From assembly GCA_900541965.1 (NCBI GenBank), contig UQLN01000002.1:16547-80546 (forward strand): DNA of 64,000 bases, written 5' to 3'. The notes below the pieces were generated by a model, which worked only from the letters and a program-made list of their open reading frames with translations, did no database searches and was not told the DNA's origin. The stretch comes from an uncultured Parabacteroides sp. (GTDB lineage Bacteria > Bacteroidota > Bacteroidia > Bacteroidales > Tannerellaceae). Position 1 is the stretch's first letter. Each line of letters opens with the position of its first letter. Below are positions 6,348 to 61,329 of this stretch, one piece after another. Position numbers and translations under genes: made by a program.

Positions 6348-6851
6348 GTGATTACCCAATCTTGCGGTCAGTTATTTCAGTGGGGACGTAAATTCGGATT
6401 TGAGAATACGAATGATGAGACTTACACTAATGAGCAAACATTTAACGGAGCAACGGAGTCACTTGGTTACCCAAAAGGCGAGGATGCTGTTGCTGAGATG
6501 ATTGATGGCGAATGGTGGGCTATCGGTGCCGGGAATAATTCTGTAACCAAAGACTGGGATTCTACCAATCATTTACTGACTATTGCCGGTGCAGAAAGCG
6601 ACCAGAAACTTATTTTGCCTGCTGCGGGCCAGCGTAACTACAGTTCCGGCGCTTCCAAGGCAGAATACAGTGCCATAAAACAGCTTCGTCCATATACGGA
6701 AGCAGGAAACAGCACTGTATTCCCTCTCCGTATCGGTACGAAAGCAGGACATAGCACTATTTTATACCTCCGTAGCAGTACGGAAGCACTAAATAGCACT
6801 AAAAAGCCCTTCCGTACCAATACGAAAGCACAAAATAGTGCCATAAAGTAG
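6348..6851 (+). pseudogene. Probable gene remnant (lipoprotein-like fragment) whose 3' end runs into the 42-bp tandem repeat array. Unlikely to be a functional gene.
   Basis: The ORF lacks an upstream signal peptide or RBS context. Its first ~100 aa look protein-like (LFQWGRKFGFENTNDETYTNEQTFNGATESLGY...DGEWWAIGAGNN). The last ~60 aa are a translation of the tandem repeats. Confidence 0.2.
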
Positions 6852-6955
6852 TTCCGTACTAGTACGGAAGCATAAAATAGTACCAAAAAGCCGTTCCGTA
6901 TCAGTACGGAGGCATAAAATAGTGCCATGTACCCCTTCCGTACCGATACGGAACG
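6685..6955. repeat. Tandem array of about 6.5 copies of a 42-bp unit. Each unit carries a 16-bp near-palindrome TCCGTAnnnnTACGGA, e.g. TCCGTACTAGTACGGA.
   Basis: Direct reading gives consecutive units beginning TCCGTA at 6727, 6769, 6811, 6853, 6895 and 6937, with a degenerate unit from 6685. Unit consensus: TCCGTAyyrGTACGGAAGCAyAAAATAGTGCCAwAAAGCCnT. Confidence 0.85.
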
Positions 6956-25553: not shown

Positions 25554-25590
25554 AAAAAGGTTAGCTGAAATTTATCAACCAACCTTTTTT
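25554..25590. terminator. Bidirectional rho-independent terminator between the convergent hypothetical gene and typA.
   Basis: AAAAAAGGTTAGCTGA...TCAACCAACCTTTTTT: a stem with A-run and T-run on either side. Confidence 0.7.
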
Positions 25591-25595
25591 AGCAT

Positions 25596-25653
25596 ATCAT
25601 AGTTATTATTTTTCCAAATCATAGTTATGAATTTGAAAAACCATAGTTATGAT
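25596..25653. repeat. Three direct copies of CATAGTTATG (the first reads CATAGTTATT) at exact 22-bp spacing. The same element recurs at 59112..59169.
   Basis: Copies start at 25598, 25620 and 25642. The spacers contain TTTGAAAAA / TTTTTCCAAAT. The element sits directly after the typA stop. Confidence 0.8.
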
Positions 25654-25668
25654 TTTTTTACGGAGAAC

Positions 25669-27465
25669 TTATCTTCCCTGACGTTTACGCTCTATTTCAT
25701 CCAGAATGACTTTACGCATACGCATATTATTAGGAGTGATTTCCACATATTCATCACCCTTAATATATTCCAACGCATCTTCCAGGCTGAATACAACAGG
25801 AGGAGCCAATGATACTTTATCATCAGAACCAGAAGCACGCATATTGGTCAGTTTCTTTGATTTGGTAACATTCACAACCAAATCATTATCTTTCGAATGT
25901 TCACCAACCACCTGTCCGGCATACACTTCTTCACCCGGTGCAATAAAGAAACGTCCGCGTGATTGAAGGTTATTCAAGGCATAAGCAAAAGCAGAACCTG
26001 TTTCCATAGCGATAATAGAACCGTTCACACGACGTTCGATTTCACCTTTCCAAGGTTGGTATTCAAGGAAACGGTGTGCCATAATCGCTTCACCGGCTGA
26101 AGCAGTCAACACTGCATTGTTCAAACCGATAATACCACGGGAAGGAATTGTAAATTCCAGATGCATACGACCATTCTTGCTTTCCATCATGGTCATTTCA
26201 CCCTTACGTTTTGTCACCATATCGATGATGCGGCTGGAACAATCTTCCGGCAAGTTAACTGTAAGCTGTTCAACCGGCTCGCATTTCTCACCATTGATTT
26301 CCTTGATGATTACCTGTGGCTGGCCTACCTGCAATTCATAGCCTTCACGACGCATTGTTTCAATCAAGACAGACAAGTGAAGCACACCGCGTCCGTATAC
26401 CAACCATGAATCGGCAGATTCAGTCGGAACAACACGCAAAGCCAGATTCTTATCCAACTCTTTCTGTAAACGGTCGTAAATATGACGTGAAGTAACGAAC
26501 TTACCATCTTTTCCGAAGAACGGAGAATTGTTGATAGTGAAGAGCATAGACATTGTCGGCTCGTCAATAGCTATTGTAGGCAGTGGCTCCGGTTCATTTA
26601 CATCGGCAATTGTTTCTCCGATTTCGAAACCATCGATACCGATAATCGCACAAATATCACCGGATTTAACCGATGAAACTTTTGTTCGTCCCAAACCCTC
26701 GAATACATCAACTTCTTTGATTCTGGATTTAACCATCGACCCATCGCGTTTGCAAAGCATGATATCCTGGCCTTCTTTCAACTCTCCACGATGAACACGT
26801 CCCACAGCGATACGTCCTACATATTTGGAATAGTCCAAAGAAGTAATCAACATCTGAGGCGTTCCTTCCAATATCTCCGGTCCCGGAATATATTCGATAA
26901 TAGCGTCCAGCAACGCATAAATATCTTCTTTCGGTTCATTCCAGTCTGTAGACATCCAACCCTGTTTTGCCGAACCATAGATAGTAGGAAAATCCAACTG
27001 CTCTTCCGTTGCATCCAAGCTAAACATCAGGTCGAACACCATTTCCTGCACTTCCGAAGGACGGCAGTTCGGTTTGTCTACCTTGTTAATAACCACGATT
27101 GGCTTTAAACCCATCTGAATAGCTTTCTGAAGAACGAAACGGGTCTGAGGCATCGGACCTTCGAAGGCATCTACCAACAGAAGGCAACCGTCCGCCATAT
27201 TCAATACACGTTCAACTTCACCTCCGAAATCGGCGTGTCCCGGAGTATCAATAATATTGATTTTGCAATCCTTGTAATTAATAGATACGTTTTTGGCGAG
27301 AATTGTAATTCCTCGTTCACGTTCCAAATCATTGTTGTCCAGGAACTGATCCGGCTCTGCCTGTCCTTCACGGAAAAGCTTACCGGCTAATAACATCTTA
27401 TCCACGAGCGTTGTTTTGCCGTGGTCTACGTGCGCGATAATCGCGATGTTTCTGATTTTTTGCAT
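25669..27465 (-). CDS. typA: Translational GTPase TypA/BipA.
   Basis: 598 aa starting [22 protein letters not shown], with the DTPGHADF G-domain and EF-G-like domains. Confidence 0.95.
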
Positions 27466-27906: not shown

Positions 27907-27930
27907 TTATTCTCTTTGGAGATATTATAA

Positions 27931-27965
27931 AAAGGATAACCTCTTACAGGGTTATCCTTTTTTCT
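27931..27965 (+). terminator. Rho-independent terminator after rpsO.
   Basis: AAAGGATAACCctcttacaGGGTTATCCTTTTTTTC. Confidence 0.8.
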
Positions 27966-28654: not shown

Positions 28655-30310
28655 ATGGAAGTACAATTACAGAATAAGACACTCGGACAGTGGATGGAAC
28701 ACTGGGCCGAAACTACCCCGGATAAAGAATACCTGGTATATTCCGACCGTGACCTGCGTTTCACATGGAAAGAGTTCAATGAACGGGTAGACAGGATGGC
28801 GAAAGGAATGCTTTCTATCGGCATTAAGCACGGAACTCATGTGGGTATCTGGGCCACGAATGTGCCCGACTGGCTGACATTCCTGTATGCCGGTGCCAAA
28901 ATCGGAGCCGTTTTAGTCACTATAAATACCAACTACAAACAGAACGAACTAGAGTTTCTGGTTGAAAATGCAGATATACATACGTTATGCATTACCGACG
29001 GCGTATTCGATGGAAGCTATATAGATATGGTATACACCATGCTCCCCGAGTTAAAAGAATCACAACGCGGATACCTGAAAAGTAAACGTTTCCCGGTTTT
29101 AAAGAATGTAGTATACATCGGACAGGAGAAATACCGTGGAATGTATAACACGCCGGAATTACTTTTGCTGGGAGAAAATATCAGTGACGATAAACTGGAT
29201 GCTGCCAAAAAACTTGTCGATTGCCACGATGTTGTCAATATGCAATATACTTCCGGTACGACCGGTTTCCCTAAAGGGGTCATGTTGACACATTACAATA
29301 TCGCAAATAACGGCTTGCTGACCGGCGAACATATGAAATTCACAGCCGCCGACAAGCTTTGCTGTTGTGTCCCTCTTTTCCACTGTTTCGGTGTTGTACT
29401 GGCATCCATGAACGTTCTGACACACGGTTGTACACAGGTTATGGTCGAGAAGTTTGACCCGCTGGTTGTACTGGCATCCATACATAAAGAACGATGCACG
29501 GCACTTTACGGAGTACCCACCATGTTTATTGCCGAGTTGAACCATCCGATGTTCCCCATGTTCGACCTGACTTCACTCCGGACCGGAATCATGGCCGGCT
29601 CGCTCTGCCCGGTAGAACTGATGCGCCAGGTAGAAGAAAAGATGTTCATGCGTGTAACCAGTGTATACGGGTTAACCGAAGCATCACCTGGTATGACTCA
29701 TTCCCGTATTGATGATGATGCGGATATACGATATAATACTGTCGGACGTGATTTCGAATTTACAGAAGTACGTGTTATCGATCCCGAAACAGGCGAAGAA
29801 TGCCCGGTTGGCGTACAAGGAGAAATGTGTAACCGTGGTTACAATACAATGAAAGGTTACTACAATAATCCGGCTGCGACCAATGAAGTAATCGATAAAA
29901 GCGGCTTTCTTCATAGTGGCGACCTTGGCGTGAAAGATGAAAACGGCAACTACCGTATCACCGGACGCATTAAGGATATGATTATCCGCGGAGGAGAAAA
30001 TATCTATCCGCGCGAAATAGAAGAATTCCTTTACCATCTGGAAGGAGTGAAAGATGTGCAGGTAGCAGCTGTTCCTTCCAAGAAATACGGGGAAGAAGTC
30101 GGCGCCTTTATCATCCTCCATGAAGATGCATCCCTGACAGAAGAAATAGTAAAAGATTTCTGTCGTGGTAAAATTGCCCGCCACAAAATACCGAAATACA
30201 TCTTTTTTGTAGATACCTTCCCTATGACAGGAAGCGGTAAAATCCAAAAATTCAAGCTGAAAGATTTAGGACTGCAATTACTGCTGGAAAAAGGAATCGA
30301 ACCAGCTTAA
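28655..30310 (+). CDS. AMP-dependent acyl-CoA synthetase/ligase.
   Basis: 551 aa with the AMP-binding motif [16 protein letters not shown], plus [20 protein letters not shown] and GKIQKF near the C-terminus. Confidence 0.85.
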
Positions 30311-30313
30311 AGA

Positions 30314-30445
30314 GTTGACAGTTGACAAGTGACAGTTGACAGTTCGCTTCCGGTATATAAACTGGTTGAAGCGGGAATAACTGTCAACTGTCACTTGTCA
30401 ACTGTCAACTACTACCTACTCCTGCCACTTGTCAATTATCAACTG
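30314..30445. repeat. Inverted-repeat element. Four tandem TGACAGT heptamers form the left arm. A conserved core follows (CTTCGCTTCCGGTATATAAACTGGTTGAAGCG). Four inverted heptamers (CTGTCAA) form the right arm.
   Basis: Left arm 30314-30342 is GTTGACAGTTGACAAGTGACAGTTGACAG. Right arm 30381-30409 is its perfect reverse complement. Additional partial heptamers lie downstream. A homologous element sits at 31941-32046. Confidence 0.85.
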
Positions 30446-30518
30446 AAAAAACCGCATTTACTCCGCTCTTTTTCTTACCTTTGTTGCCGAATATTTAAAT
30501 TAATAATACAATTTAATA

Positions 30519-31937
30519 ATGGTATCTTTATTTCCAACAGATTTGCCATACAAAGTGGCAGATATGAATCTGGTGGATTTCGGTCGCAAAGAGATTGAAA
30601 TCGCCGAACACGAAATGCCGGGTCTTATGGCTCTTCGCCAGAAATATGCAGACCAGAAACCGCTGAAAGGCGCGCGCATCACCGGCTCACTGCACATGAC
30701 TATCCAGACGGCAGTGTTAATCGAAACATTAGTTGCGTTGGGAGCAGATGTCCGTTGGGCAAGCTGCAACATCTTCTCCACACAGGACCATGCTGCGGCA
30801 GCTATTGCAGCAAGTGGAGTTCCTGTTTTTGCCTGGAAAGGTGAAACACTGGAAGAATACTGGTGGTGTACTGAAATGGCACTCCGTTTCCCCGGTGGCA
30901 AAGGACCGCATATGATTGTAGACGATGGTGGCGATGCCTCCCTGCTGATACATATGGGATACCGCGCAGAGAATGATGCAGAAACCATTAACCGTAAAGG
31001 CAGCAATCATGAAGAGCAAGTAATTCTGGATACGCTTCACCGCATTCTTGAGGAAGATAATGCACGCTGGCATCGTACGGTTGCTGAAATGAAAGGTGTT
31101 TCCGAAGAAACAACAACAGGCGTACACCGTTTGTACCAGATGATGGAAAGAGGCGAACTGCTGGTTCCCGCCATCAATGTAAACGACTCTGTTACAAAAT
31201 CCAAGTTTGACAACCTGTACGGTTGCCGCGAATCGTTGGCAGACGGTATCAAACGTGCTACAGATGTTATGATTGCAGGAAAAGTTGTTGTCGTTGCAGG
31301 ATACGGCGATGTAGGAAAAGGATGTTCACATTCCATGCGTTCATACGGAGCCCGTGTGTTGGTAACTGAAATTGACCCGATTTGTGCTTTACAGGCAGCC
31401 ATGGAAGGTTTTGAAGTTACAACGATGGAAGAAGCTGTGAAAGAAGGTAACATCTTCGTCACGACAACCGGAAACTGCGACATTATCACAATCGAGCATA
31501 TGTCACAGATGAAAGACCAGGCGATTGTTTGCAACATCGGTCACTTCGATAACGAAATACAGGTAGAAAAGTTGGTTAACTTCCCGAATATCAAACATAC
31601 CAATATCAAACCGCAGGTTGATAAATATACATTCCCGACAGGGAACTCTATCTTCTTGCTGGCAGAAGGTCGTTTGGTTAACCTGGGTTGTGCAACCGGC
31701 CACCCTTCTTTCGTAATGAGTAATTCTTTCACGAACCAAGTATTGGCACAGATGGATTTATGGACAATGCCTTATGAAATAGGTGTATATCGTCTGCCTA
31801 AACGTCTGGACGAAGAAGTTGCACGTCTCCACCTTGAACGTATCGGCGTAAAACTGAGCAAACTGACACAGAAACAGGCCGATTATATAGGTGTTCCTGT
31901 AGAAGGGCCCTATAAAGCGGACCACTACAGATACTAA
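30519..31937 (+). CDS. ahcY: Adenosylhomocysteinase (S-adenosyl-L-homocysteine hydrolase).
   Basis: 472 aa with a strong AhcY signature throughout: [10 protein letters not shown]..., the NAD-binding GYGDVGKGC, and the end ...HYRY. Confidence 0.95.
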
Positions 31938-31940
31938 TTC

Positions 31941-32046
31941 AGGTGACAGGTGACAATTGACAGGTGACAGTCAGGCTTCGCGTCCGATATACAAAATCGG
32001 TTGAAAGCTGAAGAATTGTCAACTGTCATTTGCTACTTGTCAACTG
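31941..32046. repeat. Second, more degenerate copy of the heptamer inverted-repeat element.
   Basis: Left arm GGTGACAGGTGACAATTGACAGGTGACAGT. Core CTTCGCGTCCGATATACAAAATCGGTTGAAAGC. Right arm TTGTCAACTGTCAtttgctaCTTGTCAACTG. Same orientation and the same 7-bp periodicity as the 30314 element. Confidence 0.8.
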
Positions 32047-32061
32047 CTAACCGATTTCGCG

Positions 32062-32853
32062 ATGCAGAAAAGACATTCCGACAGGGTTTTATACTTTAGG
32101 GAGCAAGCCTATACCACTCAAAAATACGTTATCCCTTTTATAGAAAAGCATCATCCAATAACAGCCGAAACCACAGTGCTTGAGATTGGGTGTGGCGAAG
32201 GGGGTAATATTCAACCATTTCTGGATTTAGGTTGCAAGGTAACCGGTATCGACCTCAATGGTGTACAAATAGAGAAAGCCAAAGATTTTTATGCCAACCA
32301 CCCTAATTACTTGAACCTTTCACTGATTTGCCGGGATATTTACCAGGTAACCGACCTGGATGAAACTTTCGATATTATCATTATTCGCGATGTCATCGAA
32401 CATATCCCCAACCAGGAAAGATTTCTTCCTTTTATTAAACGTTTTCTAAATCCCCGGGGTGTTATTTTTGTAGCATTTCCTCCCTGGCAAAACCCATTCG
32501 GAGGACATCAACAAATTTGCAGTAATAAGTATTTATCCCATCTCCCGTGGATACATTTGCTTCCTCGCAGTTTATATAAAAAATTGCTGGAATGGGGAGG
32601 TATAAATCCGAATGAACTATTGGAAATTAAGGATACCGGGATTTCCCTCGAACGCTATTTATCCATTGTAAACAAAGAACAATACAATATAAAAGAAGAG
32701 GTACTCTATTTCATCAATCCTAATTATGAAATAAAGTTCGGGCTCCGTCCCCGCGAATTATGGAAACTATTAAATATTCCCTATATTCGTAATTTCTATA
32801 CGACATGCGGATATTATTTATTAGACCTGAAAACAGAACAAAATGATTTATAG
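32062..32853 (+). CDS. Class I SAM-dependent methyltransferase.
   Basis: 263 aa with the SAM-binding motif VLEIGCGEGGNIQPFLDLGCKVTGIDL. Its 3' end overlaps the next gene by 11 nt. Confidence 0.7.
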   Translation: MQKRHSDRVLYFREQAYTTQKYVIPFIEKHHPITAETTVLEIGCGEGGNIQPFLDLGCKVTGIDLNGVQIEKAKDFYANHPNYLNLSLICRDIYQVTDLDETFDIIIIRDVIEHIPNQERFLPFIKRFLNPRGVIFVAFPPWQNPFGGHQQICSNKYLSHLPWIHLLPRSLYKKLLEWGGINPNELLEIKDTGISLERYLSIVNKEQYNIKEEVLYFINPNYEIKFGLRPRELWKLLNIPYIRNFYTTCGYYLLDLKTEQNDL

Positions 32854-57382: not shown

Positions 57383-57393
57383 AGTTTATTTTT

Positions 57394-58707
57394 TTATCTG
57401 CCGATGCAATGATAAATAAAACCATTCTCTTCCAGCTCGGCAGCATCATAAATATTGCGTCCGTCAAGGATTACCGGGGTAGCCATCAGTTTCTTTATTG
57501 CCGACCAGGAAGGCAGGCGAAATTCTTTCCATTCCGTAACCAGAAGCAAAGCATCGGCATCCACAACCGTGTCATATATATCTTTAGCATAATGAACGCT
57601 ATCCCCCAAAAGACGACGCGTTTCGTCCATTGCCACCGGGTCGTATACATAGACGTTACAACCGGCAGCCAACAACCTGTTTATAAGTACTAATGAAGGG
57701 GCTTCACGCATATCGTCCGTCTCCGGTTTAAAGGCAAGTCCCCAGATTGCAACCCGCCTGTGTTGTAAATCCCCTTTGAAATAATTATTCAACTTATGAA
57801 ACAGGATTGATTTCTGTTTCTCGTTTACATCCTCAACAGCTTCCAAGATACGCATATCATATGCATATTGTTTTGCAGTCTTGATAAGCGCTTTTATATC
57901 TTTCGGGAAACAAGAACCTCCATATCCGCAACCGGCATACAGGAAACGATTACCTATACGGGCATCCGAACCGATTCCCTTACGAACCATATTGACATCG
58001 GCGCCAACAATCTCACACAGGTTGGCAATATCATTCATAAAACTGATACGGGTGGCAAGCATTGCATTAGCCGCATATTTAGTCATTTCGGCAGAAGGCA
58101 CATCCATAAAAATAACACGGAAATTATTTAACAGGAAAGGCCGGTACAAACGCGTCATCAATTCTTTCGCCCTATCGGATTCCACTCCGACAACCACCCG
58201 GTCCGGACTCATAAAGTCCTTGATGGCTGCTCCTTCTTTCAAAAATTCCGGATTGGATGCCACATCAAACTCAATCTTCAGATTCCGTTTATCCAACTCT
58301 TCCTGAATAACCTGGCGAACCTTTCGAGCCGTACCTACCGGCACCGTACTTTTATTTACAATAAGAAGGTGTTGTTTCATATGCTGTCCGACCATACGCG
58401 CTACATCCAGCACATATGTAAGATCAGCACTGCCGTCTTCGCCGGGAGGAGTACCAACAGCACAAAACAGGACCTGAACCTTATCCAGACATTCCGTCAA
58501 ATTCGTGGTAAAATGCAAACGACCTGCTTGCTGGTTACGCCGTACCATTTCTTCAAGTCCGGGCTCATAGATTGGAATAATACCTTGTTTCAGATTCTCT
58601 ATTTTTTCCGTGTTTACATCCACACAAAAAACATCTGTTCCCATTTCTGCAAAACAGGTTCCTGTCACAAGCCCTACATAGCCAGTCCCTACTATCGCTA
58701 CTCTCAT
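57394..58707 (-). CDS. ugd: UDP-glucose 6-dehydrogenase.
   Basis: 437 aa. It has the MRVAIVGTGYVGLVTG Rossmann motif and the catalytic region GGSCFPKD. The full length is UDP-glucose/GDP-mannose dehydrogenase-like. Confidence 0.9.
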   Translation of the reverse strand: MRVAIVGTGYVGLVTGTCFAEMGTDVFCVDVNTEKIENLKQGIIPIYEPGLEEMVRRNQQAGRLHFTTNLTECLDKVQVLFCAVGTPPGEDGSADLTYVLDVARMVGQHMKQHLLIVNKSTVPVGTARKVRQVIQEELDKRNLKIEFDVASNPEFLKEGAAIKDFMSPDRVVVGVESDRAKELMTRLYRPFLLNNFRVIFMDVPSAEMTKYAANAMLATRISFMNDIANLCEIVGADVNMVRKGIGSDARIGNRFLYAGCGYGGSCFPKDIKALIKTAKQYAYDMRILEAVEDVNEKQKSILFHKLNNYFKGDLQHRRVAIWGLAFKPETDDMREAPSLVLINRLLAAGCNVYVYDPVAMDETRRLLGDSVHYAKDIYDTVVDADALLLVTEWKEFRLPSWSAIKKLMATPVILDGRNIYDAAELEENGFIYHCIGR

Positions 58708-59111
58708 AATTATATTTCCCTTTGAAAGGTCCTCCTGTTTTTAATTGCCATCCAGATACATAAAGGTTCGTCACTCCCGATATGGGAATAACAAACATAT
58801 GACAAAGATAACACGTTTATATATATCTAAAGGAGTTGAACCTGAAAAACCACAATAAACCAGTTCTATAGCAAATAAAAACAGGGAGGAAGAACAGAAC
58901 CTGCCTGTCTTCCTCCCTTTCCATAGTTAAGGTCCACTGTAAATTGCAATTTTACAAGTAGAGTTTCTTGTGTGCTTTTATTAATGCCTACCCTCTATTT
59001 CCCTCTTTCTGTTTTTATAAACGGACTTGAATATATATTATTATATATGCCGTAAAAAAAATTAAAGACACAAATCTAAACAAGCTCTATAGACAGGACA
59101 CTTTTTCCTAA

Positions 59112-59169
59112 TTCATAGTTATGGTTTTTGAAAATCATAACTATGAATTCAGAAAACCATAACTATGAA
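59112..59169. repeat. Second copy of the CATAGTTATG x3 element at 22-bp spacing. Here one unit is forward and two are inverted (CATAACTATG).
   Basis: Units start at 59114 (CATAGTTATG), 59136 (CATAACTATG) and 59158 (CATAACTATG). The spacers are GTTTTTGAAAAT / AATTCAGAAAAC. It lies between the metG 3' end and the ugd start. Confidence 0.8.
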
Positions 59170-59197
59170 GAATAAGACTGCTCTTTCCACCTGATTG

Positions 59198-59246
59198 TAT
59201 ACGAAGCGACCCCAAAAAGCTATGCAATATTCATTTGCATAACTTT
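59198..59246. terminator. Hairpin terminator downstream of metG (stem GACCCCAAAAAG / CTTTTTGGGGTC).
   Basis: A 12-bp perfect stem with internal A/T runs and a 22-nt loop. It sits 44 nt from the metG stop. Confidence 0.55.
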
Positions 59247-59289
59247 TTGGGGTCACTCTCTGGCTATCTTAGCCTATATATAAGTAACC

Positions 59290-61329
59290 TTATTTTACTT
59301 CGCTTCCCGGTTTTACTTCTTTTTGCGGAGTGATGACAGACAGTTTTCCGTCAAAATCCTCAGCAGAAAGAATCATACCTTCGGATACGATGCCTTTTAA
59401 TTTACGGGGAGCCAGATTTGCTACAAAACAAACCTGTTTACCTACCAGTTCTTCCGGGGCATAATGCTGGGCAATTCCCGAAACAATCGTACGTTTTTCC
59501 AGGCCGTCGTCAATACGGAATTGAAGCAGTTTATCCGCTTTTGGAACTTTTGTACATTCAAGAATGGTTCCTACACGGATATCCAATTTCATAAAGTCAT
59601 CGAACTCAATGTTTTCACGGATTGGTTTTGCCTTGTAATTTGCTTCTTCATTTGCTTTCTTGGTATCGAGAAGTTTCTGTACTTGTGCCTCAATTACGCT
59701 ATCTTCCATTTTTTCAAACAAAAGTTCGGATTTACCTAACTGATGGCCGGCTTCCAGCAAATCGGTAGAGCCTAAACGATCCCAACCCAGCGGCTGTACA
59801 TTCAGCATCTTGTTCAAACGTTCCATGCTGAAAGGCAGGAACGGTTCAAAAGCAATAGCCAGGTTTGCCGTAATCTGCAAAGCGATATTCATGATAGTTG
59901 CCACGCGCGACATATCCGTTTTAGCCAGTTTCCAAGGTTCCGTGTCAGCAAGGTATTTATTACCGATACGTGCCAGATTCATCGCTTCTTTTTGTGCATC
60001 ACGGAAATGGTATGCATCGAGCAGGCGCTCCACATCTTCCTTCACATTTGCAAAATCGGTCATAGTCTGACGGTCATAGTCGGTCAACTCTCCAGCCGCA
60101 GGTACTTTGCCATCAAAATATTTTTCGGTAAGAACAAGGGCACGGTTCACGAAGTTACCCAGAATAGCAACCAGCTCGTTATTGTTGCGTGCCTGGAAAT
60201 CTTTCCAGGTAAAGTCGTTATCTTTTGTTTCCGGGGCATTAGCAGTTAGGACATAACGCAATACATCCTGCTTACCCGGCATATCTACCAGATATTCATT
60301 CAACCATACAGCCCAGTTACGGGATGTGGAGATTTTATCACCTTCCAGGTTAAGGAACTCATTTGCAGGTACATTTTCCGGAAGGTTATAGGAACCTTCC
60401 GCCTTCAGCATCGATGGAAATACGATGCAGTGGAATACGATATTATCTTTACCGATAAAATGAACCATCTTTGTTTCCGGATCTTTCCACCACGTTTCCC
60501 AAGAATCGGGAAGCAATTCTTTTGTATTGGAGATATATCCGATAGGAGCATCAAACCAGACATAGAGCACTTTACCTTCGGCGCCTTCCACCGGCACAGG
60601 TATGCCCCAGTCCAGGTCGCGACTTACTGCGCGTGGCTGAAGTCCCATATCCAGCCAGCTTTTACACTGTCCGTATACATTCGGTTTCCATTCTTTATGA
60701 CCTTCCAGAATCCATTCGCGCAAGAAAGGTTCCCATTTGTCAAGAGGCAGGTACCAGTGTTTGGTTTCCTTCATCACGGGCTTGCTTCCACTGATTGCCG
60801 ACTTCGGGTCGATCAGGTCTGTCGGACTAAGCGAGGTACCGCAGGCTTCACACTGATCGCCATAGGCTTTCTCGTTACCGCAATGAGGGCATGTTCCGGT
60901 TATATAACGGTCGGCAAGGAATTGTTTAGCTTCCTCATCGTAATATTGTTCGCTTGTTTTCTCAATAAATTCGCCTTTATCATATAAGGTACGGAAGAAA
61001 TCCGAAGCCATCTGATGGTGCGTAGCTGAAGTAGTGCGGGAATAGATATCGAAAGTTATCCCGAAATCTTCAAAAGATTTCTTGATAATGCCATGATACC
61101 GGTCCACTACATCCTGTGGAGTTATCCCTTCTTTCTTTGCTCTCAGAGTAATAGGTACCCCATGCTCATCCGAGCCGCCAATCATCAGTACTTCTTCCCC
61201 TTTCAACCGAAGATAACGCGCATAAATATCAGCAGGCACATATACCCCCGCCAAATGACCAATATGCACCGGTCCGTTAGCATACGGCAACGCTGTTGTT
61301 ATCAGCGTTCTTTTAAATCGCTTTTCCAT
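59290..61329 (-). CDS. metG: Methionine--tRNA ligase.
   Basis: The start is at [25 protein letters not shown] (HIGH motif). It carries the KMSKS-equivalent, Zn-knuckle cysteines ([18 protein letters not shown]) and a C-terminal tRNA-binding EMAP-like domain. Confidence 0.95.

Follow-up and report, generated by a model that had tools for sequence, protein, structure and literature searches.

Short non-coding repeats that fold into hairpins between bacterial genes have been described in several kinds, and it is against these that we set two palindromic elements bracketing ahcY, the S-adenosylhomocysteine (SAH) hydrolase gene, in a contig of an uncultured Parabacteroides sp. (UQLN01000002.1; the whole 64,000-nt stretch analyzed is called the window throughout). 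Parabacteroides is a major human gut genus, and the species of the window is close to P. distasonis. The closest known kinds are repetitive extragenic palindromic (REP) doublets forming hairpins (REPINs), MITEs (transposable elements of the miniature inverted-repeat type) and the SPRITE repeat; arms built of heptamers and a flipping core set the Parabacteroides family apart from each. The arms of REPINs are REPs, each a short imperfect palindrome, and are linked to the gene for a REP-associated tyrosine transposase (RAYT). Like the elements described here, REPINs are ~100-nt, non-coding structures of two inverted repeats and a spacer with a hairpin predicted in single-stranded DNA or mRNA, and both are multi-copy, extragenic and non-autonomous (Bertels & Rainey 2011, PMC3116915). 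The Parabacteroides elements share with REPs and REPINs the hairpin of two inverted units and a spacer in extragenic space, but their arms are tandem 7-nt repeats rather than self-complementary, imperfectly palindromic units, and no RAYT was found in the flanks searched. Bacterial MITEs such as Correia and ERIC are likewise short, non-coding and intergenic, with terminal inverted repeats, a variable core and a stable fold when co-transcribed (PMC3184786), whereas the terminal repeats in Parabacteroides are internally 7-nt periodic and change length by whole heptamers. The terminator-like repeat SPRITE is also dispersed, ~105 nt long and a hairpin of the transcript 3'-end type at gene ends; the same review treats REP effects on mRNA stability, a further precedent (PMC3184786). 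SPRITE is canonical-terminator-like by its name, however, and the Parabacteroides family has no U-tract (1% of copies are T-rich). A large MITE survey names Parabacteroides only in aggregate.

Heptanucleotide tandem repeats are themselves familiar, for example as the short tandemly repeated repetitive (STRR) sequences of cyanobacteria. Arrays of the heptamer TAACTGA in Beggiatoaceae, Cyanobacteria and some Bacteroidetes are direct and lie mostly just upstream of start codons; only one inverted case is reported for the Beggiatoa genome, and polymerase slippage was proposed as their origin (MacGregor 2015, PMC4679880). Heptamers are also in excess among long prokaryotic simple-sequence repeats, at least as the finding is quoted there (Mrazek 2007, cited in PMC4679880). 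The elements at ahcY share with these repeats the intergenic 7-nt units and a scattered phylogeny that includes Bacteroidetes, but the arrays here come as inverted pairs that fold around a loop into a hairpin, at the 3' ends of genes. A third kind of precedent concerns the loop. Kelchner and Wendel reportedly described in 1996 minute inversions of hairpin loops in chloroplasts, and terminal palindromes are known to exist as flip/flop isomers. These cases resemble ours in that a short spacer within perfect inverted repeats occurs in both orientations in close relatives with nothing else changed; they come, however, from organelle or viral genomes. The invertons of Bacteroidales also present a segment between inverted repeats in both orientations and in the same order (here at the level of assemblies). 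An inverton is hundreds of base pairs long, contains a promoter and needs a site-specific recombinase, whereas the segment here is 34 bp long and has no recognizable promoter or coding switch.

We think it rather probable that both elements at ahcY are members of a dispersed, MITE/REPIN-like family of ~100-nt non-coding palindromic repeats in Parabacteroides (Tannerellaceae). The family is a selfish or structural repeat and not an ahcY-specific regulator, because its copies are scattered at gene ends and its core occurs in both orientations among assembled strains. Some trans-acting mechanism, transposition or copying, would recognize the arms and so spread the copies. Once in place, the arms may be kept complementary and reshuffled by replication slippage in 7-nt steps, along with recombination or template switching from one arm of a palindrome to the other, and this would also turn the core around in a flip-flop manner.

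The observation from a sequence-only reading that two heptamer-repeat inverted elements bracket ahcY proved real: arms, 7-nt period and shared core motifs were all recovered (Table 1). Copy 1 (30313-30410) has two arms of 32 nt that are 100% complementary across a 34-nt spacer; that reading had put the perfect arms at 29 nt, so that the complementarity stands and the length does not. It had also extended the pairing to ~36 nt, and the GCTTC/GAAGC region does pair, but in the RNA fold the CGCTTC/GAAGCG pairing resumes only past a 5-nt bulge on the 3' side and so is not contiguous. Tandem Repeats Finder gives each copy 1 arm a period of 7 with 4.6 copies, and the arms read as tandem heptamers without internal self-complementarity. 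In copy 2 (31940-32046), a degenerate relative, the core is homologous, the arms show periodic mismatches, and the left arm has period 7 and 4.4 copies. The cores have TCCGrTATAyAAA and GGTTGAA in common, and they lie in the same orientation in this window, as first described, although orientation is not fixed among assemblies. RNA folding of the plus strand gives -68 kcal/mol for copy 1 (z = -11.1) and -45 kcal/mol for copy 2 (z = -4.4), and the minus strands are nearly as stable. Across the whole window a three-heptamer TGACA pattern matched 16 times against 0.62 expected by chance, every match falling inside the two elements or the partial arm adjacent to copy 1, which that reading had not noted. 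An nhmmer search with the family profile found no further copies in the window. The copies are ~98-107 nt long, non-coding palindromes without a plausible open reading frame (ORF) of their own; one mechanical ORF of 89 aa (30329-30598) starts inside copy 1 and runs into ahcY out of frame.

The same sequence recurs elsewhere. A pattern of two heptamers on each side plus GGYTGAAR was found in 75 stretches of metagenome contigs, containing 77 elements in a complete listing. Metagenome and strain loci together gave 86 elements in 43 locus groups defined by their flanks; four of the 43 are unrelated sequences from other phyla, leaving ~39 Parabacteroides-like loci. Among the metagenome stretches, L189 represents the locus of the window itself (99.5% identity), and another (L217) matches a locus of a named Parabacteroides genome (L077). 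The MITE/REP-like interpretation offered from sequence alone is thus supported as a dispersed repeat family, with arms and core at ~39 unrelated loci, and the possibility that the element occurs only here is set aside. Aligned copies give the consensus CAGTTGACAGTTGACAAGTGACAGTTGACAGTT for the left arm with a perfectly complementary right arm, and rGGCTTCGCG-yyCGGTAAATAAA-TCGGCTGAAAGCCGA-AATA for the core; the window copies are somewhat diverged members, reading GGTTGAA where the family has GGCTGAA. No match to the core pattern was found in the viral contigs that were scanned, and a BLAST search of phage and plasmid collections with the family consensus gave hits to the arms alone, from a single faecal phage and three records of P. 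distasonis, which were uninformative. The searchable literature yielded no account of this family, nor of hairpins formed by inverted heptamer arrays more broadly, but only of kindred, distinct phenomena; searched as exact strings, the arm sequences returned only an unrelated Candida paper.

The same arms occur with quite different loops, which makes them look like the fixed portion of the family and the core like a cargo that is optional. Family arms enclose a minimal 11-nt loop at one locus (L172), and among the matches listed P. faecis, P. goldsteinii, P. distasonis and a Tannerellaceae metagenome-assembled genome (MAG) have the same irregular arm order (..TTGACAAGTGACAGTTGACAG..), AAGTGAC heptamer included, around loops that differ. 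The right half of the element appears better conserved than the left, whose heptamers shift register, an asymmetry that may partly reflect the search pattern. Changes in the innermost heptamer are matched on both arms (AGAT/ATCT and AGGT/ACCT, for example), and complementarity therefore appears to be actively kept. At six distinct loci in the same assemblies the element is longer, ~145 nt, through added segments at its ends (TAGAAAAATGTGAAACATTTTT ... TTTGAAATGGCTCACTTTTGATAA), which include a small AAAAATGT-GAA-ACATTTTT hairpin. The members of this subfamily are L168, L173, L180, L185, L188, L191, L195, L197, L201, L213 (two copies) and L222, where L numbers are our handles for assemblies and loci, and they have TA-containing ends. 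Those ends, seen at the six loci, are reminiscent of elements with a TA target duplication.

The copies have as neighbors housekeeping genes with no relation to one another (purD, pyrI, thrA, leuB, a ROK-family gene and a GH92 gene, for example). The nearest stop codon is usually within ~20 nt. With the core as reference, 18 contexts are convergent, 10 co-directional in sense, nine co-directional in antisense and three divergent, which is the distribution expected for terminators, REPs and MITEs; in a broader sample of TGACA hairpins, 42 were convergent, 44 co-directional and 11 divergent among the matches listed. The core thus has no strand preference (10 sense versus nine antisense), which argues against a strand-specific RNA role for it. 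At several loci two copies surround one small gene, as at ahcY. The genes enclosed in this way belong by Pfam to ROK, PyrI, sodium:solute symporter and 23S-rRNA-intervening-sequence proteins, and no transposase was among them. At one such locus (L186, 7261-7854) a 119-aa protein gene of the last kind (PF05635, Avd-like) sits between two family elements and between thrA and a phosphoglycerate-mutase-like gene, an arrangement that resembles an inserted cassette. The suggestion that the elements insulate ahcY or co-regulate it with downstream methylation genes is not supported as anything specific, because the family sits beside unrelated housekeeping genes.

Table 1. Features of the ahcY region of the window (window positions; + strand where marked)
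Feature	Positions	Strand	Length	Sequence	Remarks
AMP-binding (acyl-CoA ligase-type) gene	28655-30310	+			Copy 1 follows its 3' end
Copy 1, left arm	30313-30344		32 nt	AGTTGAC AGTTGAC AAGTGAC AGTTGAC AGTT	Begins 3 nt past the ligase stop codon
Copy 1, core/spacer	30345-30378	+	34 nt	CGCTTCCGGTATATAAACTGGTTGAAGCGGGAAT	Exact reverse complement in assemblies L017 and L023
Copy 1, right arm	30379-30410				Perfect complement of left arm
Partial duplicate of copy 1 right arm	30422-30444				87% identical to 30388-30410
Conserved stretch upstream of ahcY	30476-30518	+		TACCTTTG ... ATG	94-100% identical among strain assemblies
ahcY (S-adenosylhomocysteine hydrolase, AdoHcyase)	30519-31937	+			Between the two copies
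Copy 2, left arm	31940-31971			Heptamers AGGTGAC and AATTGAC	Begins 3 nt past the ahcY stop codon
Copy 2, core	31972-32013	+		CAGGCTTCGCGTCCGATATACAAAATCGGTTGAAAGCTGAAG	Homologous to family core rGGCTTCGCG..CGrTAwAyAAATCGGCTGAAAGCC
Copy 2, right arm	32014-32046			One heptamer is TGCTACT	Degenerate; ends 15 nt before the methyltransferase ATG
Class I S-adenosylmethionine (SAM)-dependent methyltransferase gene	32062-32853	+			Directly downstream of copy 2

The original gene assignments at this locus (an acyl-CoA ligase, ahcY and a methyltransferase/heptose operon) hold, with GHMP kinase, SIS and nucleotidyltransferase genes coming after the methyltransferase gene. The conserved stretch just upstream of ahcY, whose TACCTTTG motif also occurs in three other Parabacteroides lineages, is probably the ahcY promoter and leader. 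If so, copy 1 would be a 3' element of the ligase gene, lying upstream of the promoter, and not part of the ahcY leader.

Comparison of strains suggests how such elements change. Seven assemblies encode an identical AhcY, and the spacer upstream of the gene is 174, 184, 187 or 208 nt long in them. One assembly (L019) lacks 21 nt, or three heptamers, from the left arm of copy 1 only. From another (L017), 34 nt are missing between the two direct repeats formed by the right arm of copy 1 and the partial arm at 30422-30444, a difference that would fit a repeat-mediated insertion or deletion. Copy 1 of L017 and L023 has its 34-nt core as the exact reverse complement of the window core, between unchanged arms and flanks, and L023 has only one other base difference from the window; the window, L018 and L019 share the opposite orientation. 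Core orientation is polymorphic at three of 22 loci sampled at least twice, copy 1 and two others. In the lineage of L020-22 the elements are only 61-74% identical to those of the window, versus 87% at third codon positions of ahcY, and the promoter-proximal segment of the spacer is 94-96% identical. The elements thus change faster than synonymous sites. Judged from the aligned sequences, heptamer gain and loss, deletion and core flips would be the kinds of change expected from slippage, repeat-mediated deletion and inter-arm recombination.

Both core orientations in near-identical assemblies, at copy 1 and two other loci, might also suggest a phase-variable DNA switch, in which a recombinase flips the 34-nt core and thereby switches ahcY or its neighbors, and Bacteroidales are known to be rich in invertible promoters. 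We consider such an inverton very unlikely here. A 34-bp spacer is far below the size of known invertase substrates, no Bacteroidetes -7/-33 promoter motif was seen by eye in the core in either orientation, and the conserved promoter-like segment of ahcY lies downstream of copy 1. Moreover, inversion of the core leaves the stem unchanged, so that little functional difference would be expected. The flips could also be artifacts, as all of the evidence for them is at the level of assemblies.

Several observations weigh against the dispersed-repeat interpretation itself, beginning with that assembly-level evidence: with an effective k-mer of 32 or less, de Bruijn assemblers can mis-orient a segment enclosed by a perfect inverted repeat of 32 nt. 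The label "Parabacteroides-like" rests on unverified taxonomy for most metagenome contigs. Inspection by eye of ~20 loci and of the ~145-nt subfamily showed no consistent target-site duplication, and the flanks are AT-rich and inconsistent. In the ORFs flanking the copies we found no transposase, RAYT or parent insertion sequence with these arms. When ORFs at the 75 family loci were clustered, no protein family recurred beside the copies except orthologues from the same locus. Arms built of tandem repeats are atypical of the terminal inverted repeats that transposases recognize. The role at the RNA level discussed below is purely what we infer. Finally, no clean pair of filled and empty sites was obtained: at ahcY, relatives without copy 1 differ by more than a simple insertion. 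In one such lineage (L149-151) the ligase-ahcY spacer is 36 nt long and has no copy 1, and the window has there ~70 nt of other extra sequence. Another locus (L204), which shares flanks with window positions 57388-60201, differs from the window by ~3 kb of other genes and is unusable as an empty-site comparison. On the other side stand the features that the family shares with MITEs, namely a short non-coding element with terminal inverted repeats in many dispersed copies at unrelated loci. We also considered whether ahcY itself might be a mobile cassette carried between two elements; this was rejected because the ligase-ahcY-methyltransferase synteny exists without copy 1 in L149-151.

The ahcY locus of relatives bears on an alternative origin. 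A heptamer hairpin lies directly after ahcY in four of five other Bacteroidales lineages examined. The unit after ahcY is TGACAG in the window species, ATTGAAA (four per arm) in P. distasonis, TGCCAAT/ATTGGCA in P. goldsteinii and ATTGACA in Bacteroides intestinalis; the L149-151 lineage has an imperfect hairpin of ACGGATT-like units, and L148 has a 4-nt gap after ahcY and no hairpin. The hairpin adjoins the ATG of the next gene in P. distasonis and P. goldsteinii and stops 15 nt short of it in the window. The 3' site of ahcY holds either an old hairpin evolving in concert or a position that has been repeatedly re-occupied. Copy 1 has no counterpart in P. goldsteinii or P. distasonis; at its position P. 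goldsteinii has a terminator and a GTTTCC/GGAAAC hairpin array, and P. distasonis an ACTGCAA/TTGCAGT hairpin array. These small-hairpin arrays, with a period of ~22 nt (~1270-1400 in L144-L147 of P. goldsteinii, GTTTCC..GGAAAC; ~1295-1385 in L227-L231 of P. distasonis, ACTGCAA..TTGCAGT), are a second, different repeat type.

Hairpins after ahcY in four other lineages, each with its own unit, could mean that a host-selected structure evolves in place, and this too counts against mobility. Under this alternative the elements would be 3'-end or intercistronic hairpins, kept behind ahcY and other genes to define transcript 3' ends, to stabilize or to attenuate; their 7-nt units would turn over by concerted evolution, and their likeness between loci would come from gene conversion or convergence. 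It would account for the strong bias to gene 3' ends and for the orthologous loci L077 and L217 both keeping the element at a flank identity of 88.6%, and stem-loops accompany transcript 3' ends regardless of the termination factor (PMC13613805). We nevertheless regard it as rather unlikely. About 39 loci with unrelated genes share ~100 nt at high identity, including a core that is not palindromic, which is hard to explain without copying. The pace of change relative to synonymous sites, the flipping core without strand preference, the lack of a U-tract and the lineage with no hairpin after ahcY (L148) also speak against it.

If the elements belong to a dispersed repeat family, as we favor, they may still affect the transcripts in which they lie. 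Bacteroidota 3' stem-loops deviate little from canonical intrinsic terminators, and stem-loops mark transcript 3' ends whatever termination factor acts (PMC13613805). The elements are not canonical (Rho-independent) terminators. Only one of 72 family copies (1%), a share below background, has on either strand a T-rich tail, defined as 6 or more T among the 9 nt past the stem, and a terminator consensus scan called neither window element. The suspicion that these are not plain intrinsic terminators is therefore confirmed by the missing T-tract. The same scan found an A/T-flanked canonical terminator at 27929-27962, so this genome does use ordinary terminators of that type; it is bidirectional (AAAAAGGATAACC...GGTTATCCTTTTT) and lies downstream of the S15 gene. 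In P. goldsteinii a canonical terminator directly follows the ligase gene. Because a hairpin without a U-tract departs from the Bacteroidota norm, a role as a barrier or processing site at the 3' end is more plausible for it than one as a terminator. Transcribed within a 3' untranslated region or an intercistronic segment, a hairpin of -45 to -68 kcal/mol would act as such a barrier or site, and the outcome could be a more stable mRNA, partial attenuation or a target for RNase III. On this view the ligase transcript would have its 3' end at copy 1, upstream of the ahcY promoter, while copy 2 would separate ahcY from the methyltransferase/heptose genes as an intercistronic hairpin.

Another possibility raised at the outset was that the core is a structured cis-regulatory RNA, perhaps responsive to SAH or SAM, that controls ahcY. 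In its favor, ahcY, which has copy 1 upstream of it, is of the class of genes that SAH riboswitches control in other phyla, small hairpins are present in the core, and wobble pairing would accommodate some of the one-sided changes. We find this explanation barely credible. Rfam searched at its gathering score gave no match anywhere in the window, the SAH riboswitch included, and at a permissive E-value the element region matched only sub-threshold microRNA-precursor models, typical of any long hairpin. Covariance was the check proposed for such an RNA; RNAalifold recovers the arms and a local CGGCU-GAA-AGCCG hairpin in the family with a covariation term of only -0.21 kcal/mol, which is negligible. 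In addition, some assemblies have the core inverted, it shows no strand bias, the loops of different copies vary widely, unrelated genes adjoin the same core, and copy 1 lies upstream of the probable ahcY promoter. A sigma-70-like promoter formed by TTGACA in the arm and TAAACT or TAAATA in the core was also considered and rejected as a function: the core flips, and Bacteroidetes promoters use a consensus other than the sigma-70 type.

The recurrence of TGACA strictly every 7 nt on both arms, and the conservation of the arm sequence across many loci, invite the idea of an array of TGACA/TGTCA half-sites, bound by a regulator or nucleoid protein that coordinates ahcY with SAM-dependent genes. 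A scan without the core gave at least 120 loci, and among the matches listed multi-heptamer inverted arrays occur in Acidobacteriota (many), Bacteroidota, Verrucomicrobiota, Planctomycetota, Actinomycetota, Clostridia and cyanobacteria. These loci comprise 865 kb, and each was chosen for one TGACA hairpin, so that the periods counted in them are not genome-wide frequencies. A sequence-independent scan of the 865 kb for long hairpins found 198, with period 7 in 126, period 8 in three, period 9 in three and no period in 66; 37 of the 126 period-7 hairpins use 34 heptamers unrelated to TGACA. These additional hairpins, and the loci selected by ahcY, are independent of the TGACA search pattern. 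Since unrelated heptamers build the same architecture, including ATTGAAA and ATTGGCA at the 3' position of ahcY itself, TGACA is not special, and the main support for a TGACA-binding protein is gone. Together with the functionally unrelated genes that flank the family and the location of the elements at 3' ends rather than in promoter regions, this makes a protein-binding array highly improbable.

It is tempting to speculate that the elements at ahcY are one example of a general class not described before, that of gene 3'-end hairpins whose arms are inverted arrays of a 7-nt unit free to vary, and we put this forward only tentatively. If true, it would imply a cross-phylum mechanism that builds and homogenizes palindromes in 7-nt steps and flips their loops. 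The candidates would be replication slippage with intra-hairpin template switching, or some enzyme. Single hairpins could then occasionally escape as mobile families, as seemingly happened in Parabacteroides. Should the 7-nt rule hold across phyla, the natural polymorphism in flip and length would offer a tractable system for how bacterial palindromes are built and maintained. It would also bear on heptanucleotides as the commonest long prokaryotic simple-sequence repeats, in so far as that finding is quoted in the later paper (Mrazek 2007, cited in PMC4679880). Within Parabacteroides, perfect palindromes of ~100 nt at dozens of gene ends give strains an inherent means of diverging, by gaining and losing heptamers, by deletions and possibly by inversion of the core. 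The palindromes may have effects on where transcripts end and on relative expression within operons, such as that of ahcY versus the lipopolysaccharide/heptose genes. They probably also give rise to assembly errors and mislead programs searching for invertible DNA into false calls.

Other lineages and other parts of the window provided further observations. In Kitasatospora and Streptomyces (L029, L061, L082, L083, L085, L117), hairpins with GATGACA/GCTGACA arms share a palindromic loop, ATTTCGAAATC or ATTTCAGA, which suggests a separate family in Actinomycetota. Pyrinomonadaceae and related MAGs (L037, L054, L074, L092, L108, L112, L122) have up to five heptamer hairpins per 8-kb block, each with its own unit (AGTCCCA, GGGATGA, AGAGGTC or TTAGCGA, for example), and many are A-rich on the 5' side and T-rich on the 3' side like bidirectional terminators. 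In a Clostridia MAG a GTGACAA-type hairpin (L049, 2694-2790) lies directly downstream of an AMP-binding ligase 49% identical to that of the window, probably by coincidence. Two AhcY homologues, P0001 (560 aa) and P0002 (589 aa), have ~90-120 residues beyond the usual 472, and they may be gene calls that read through an upstream hairpin region, or fusions. The window itself contains two other tandem repeats. A 42-nt unit at 6769-6953 (TCCGTACCAGTACGGAAGCACAAAATAGTACCAAAAAGCCGT; 4.4 copies) carries a small hairpin, TCCGTAC...GTACGGA, in each unit and resembles the small-hairpin arrays upstream of ahcY in other Parabacteroides species. A 22-nt unit at 25587-25656 (TTTTAACAAATCATAGTTATGA; 3.2 copies) lies just past the 3' end of the minus-strand BipA/TypA gene (25669-27465).

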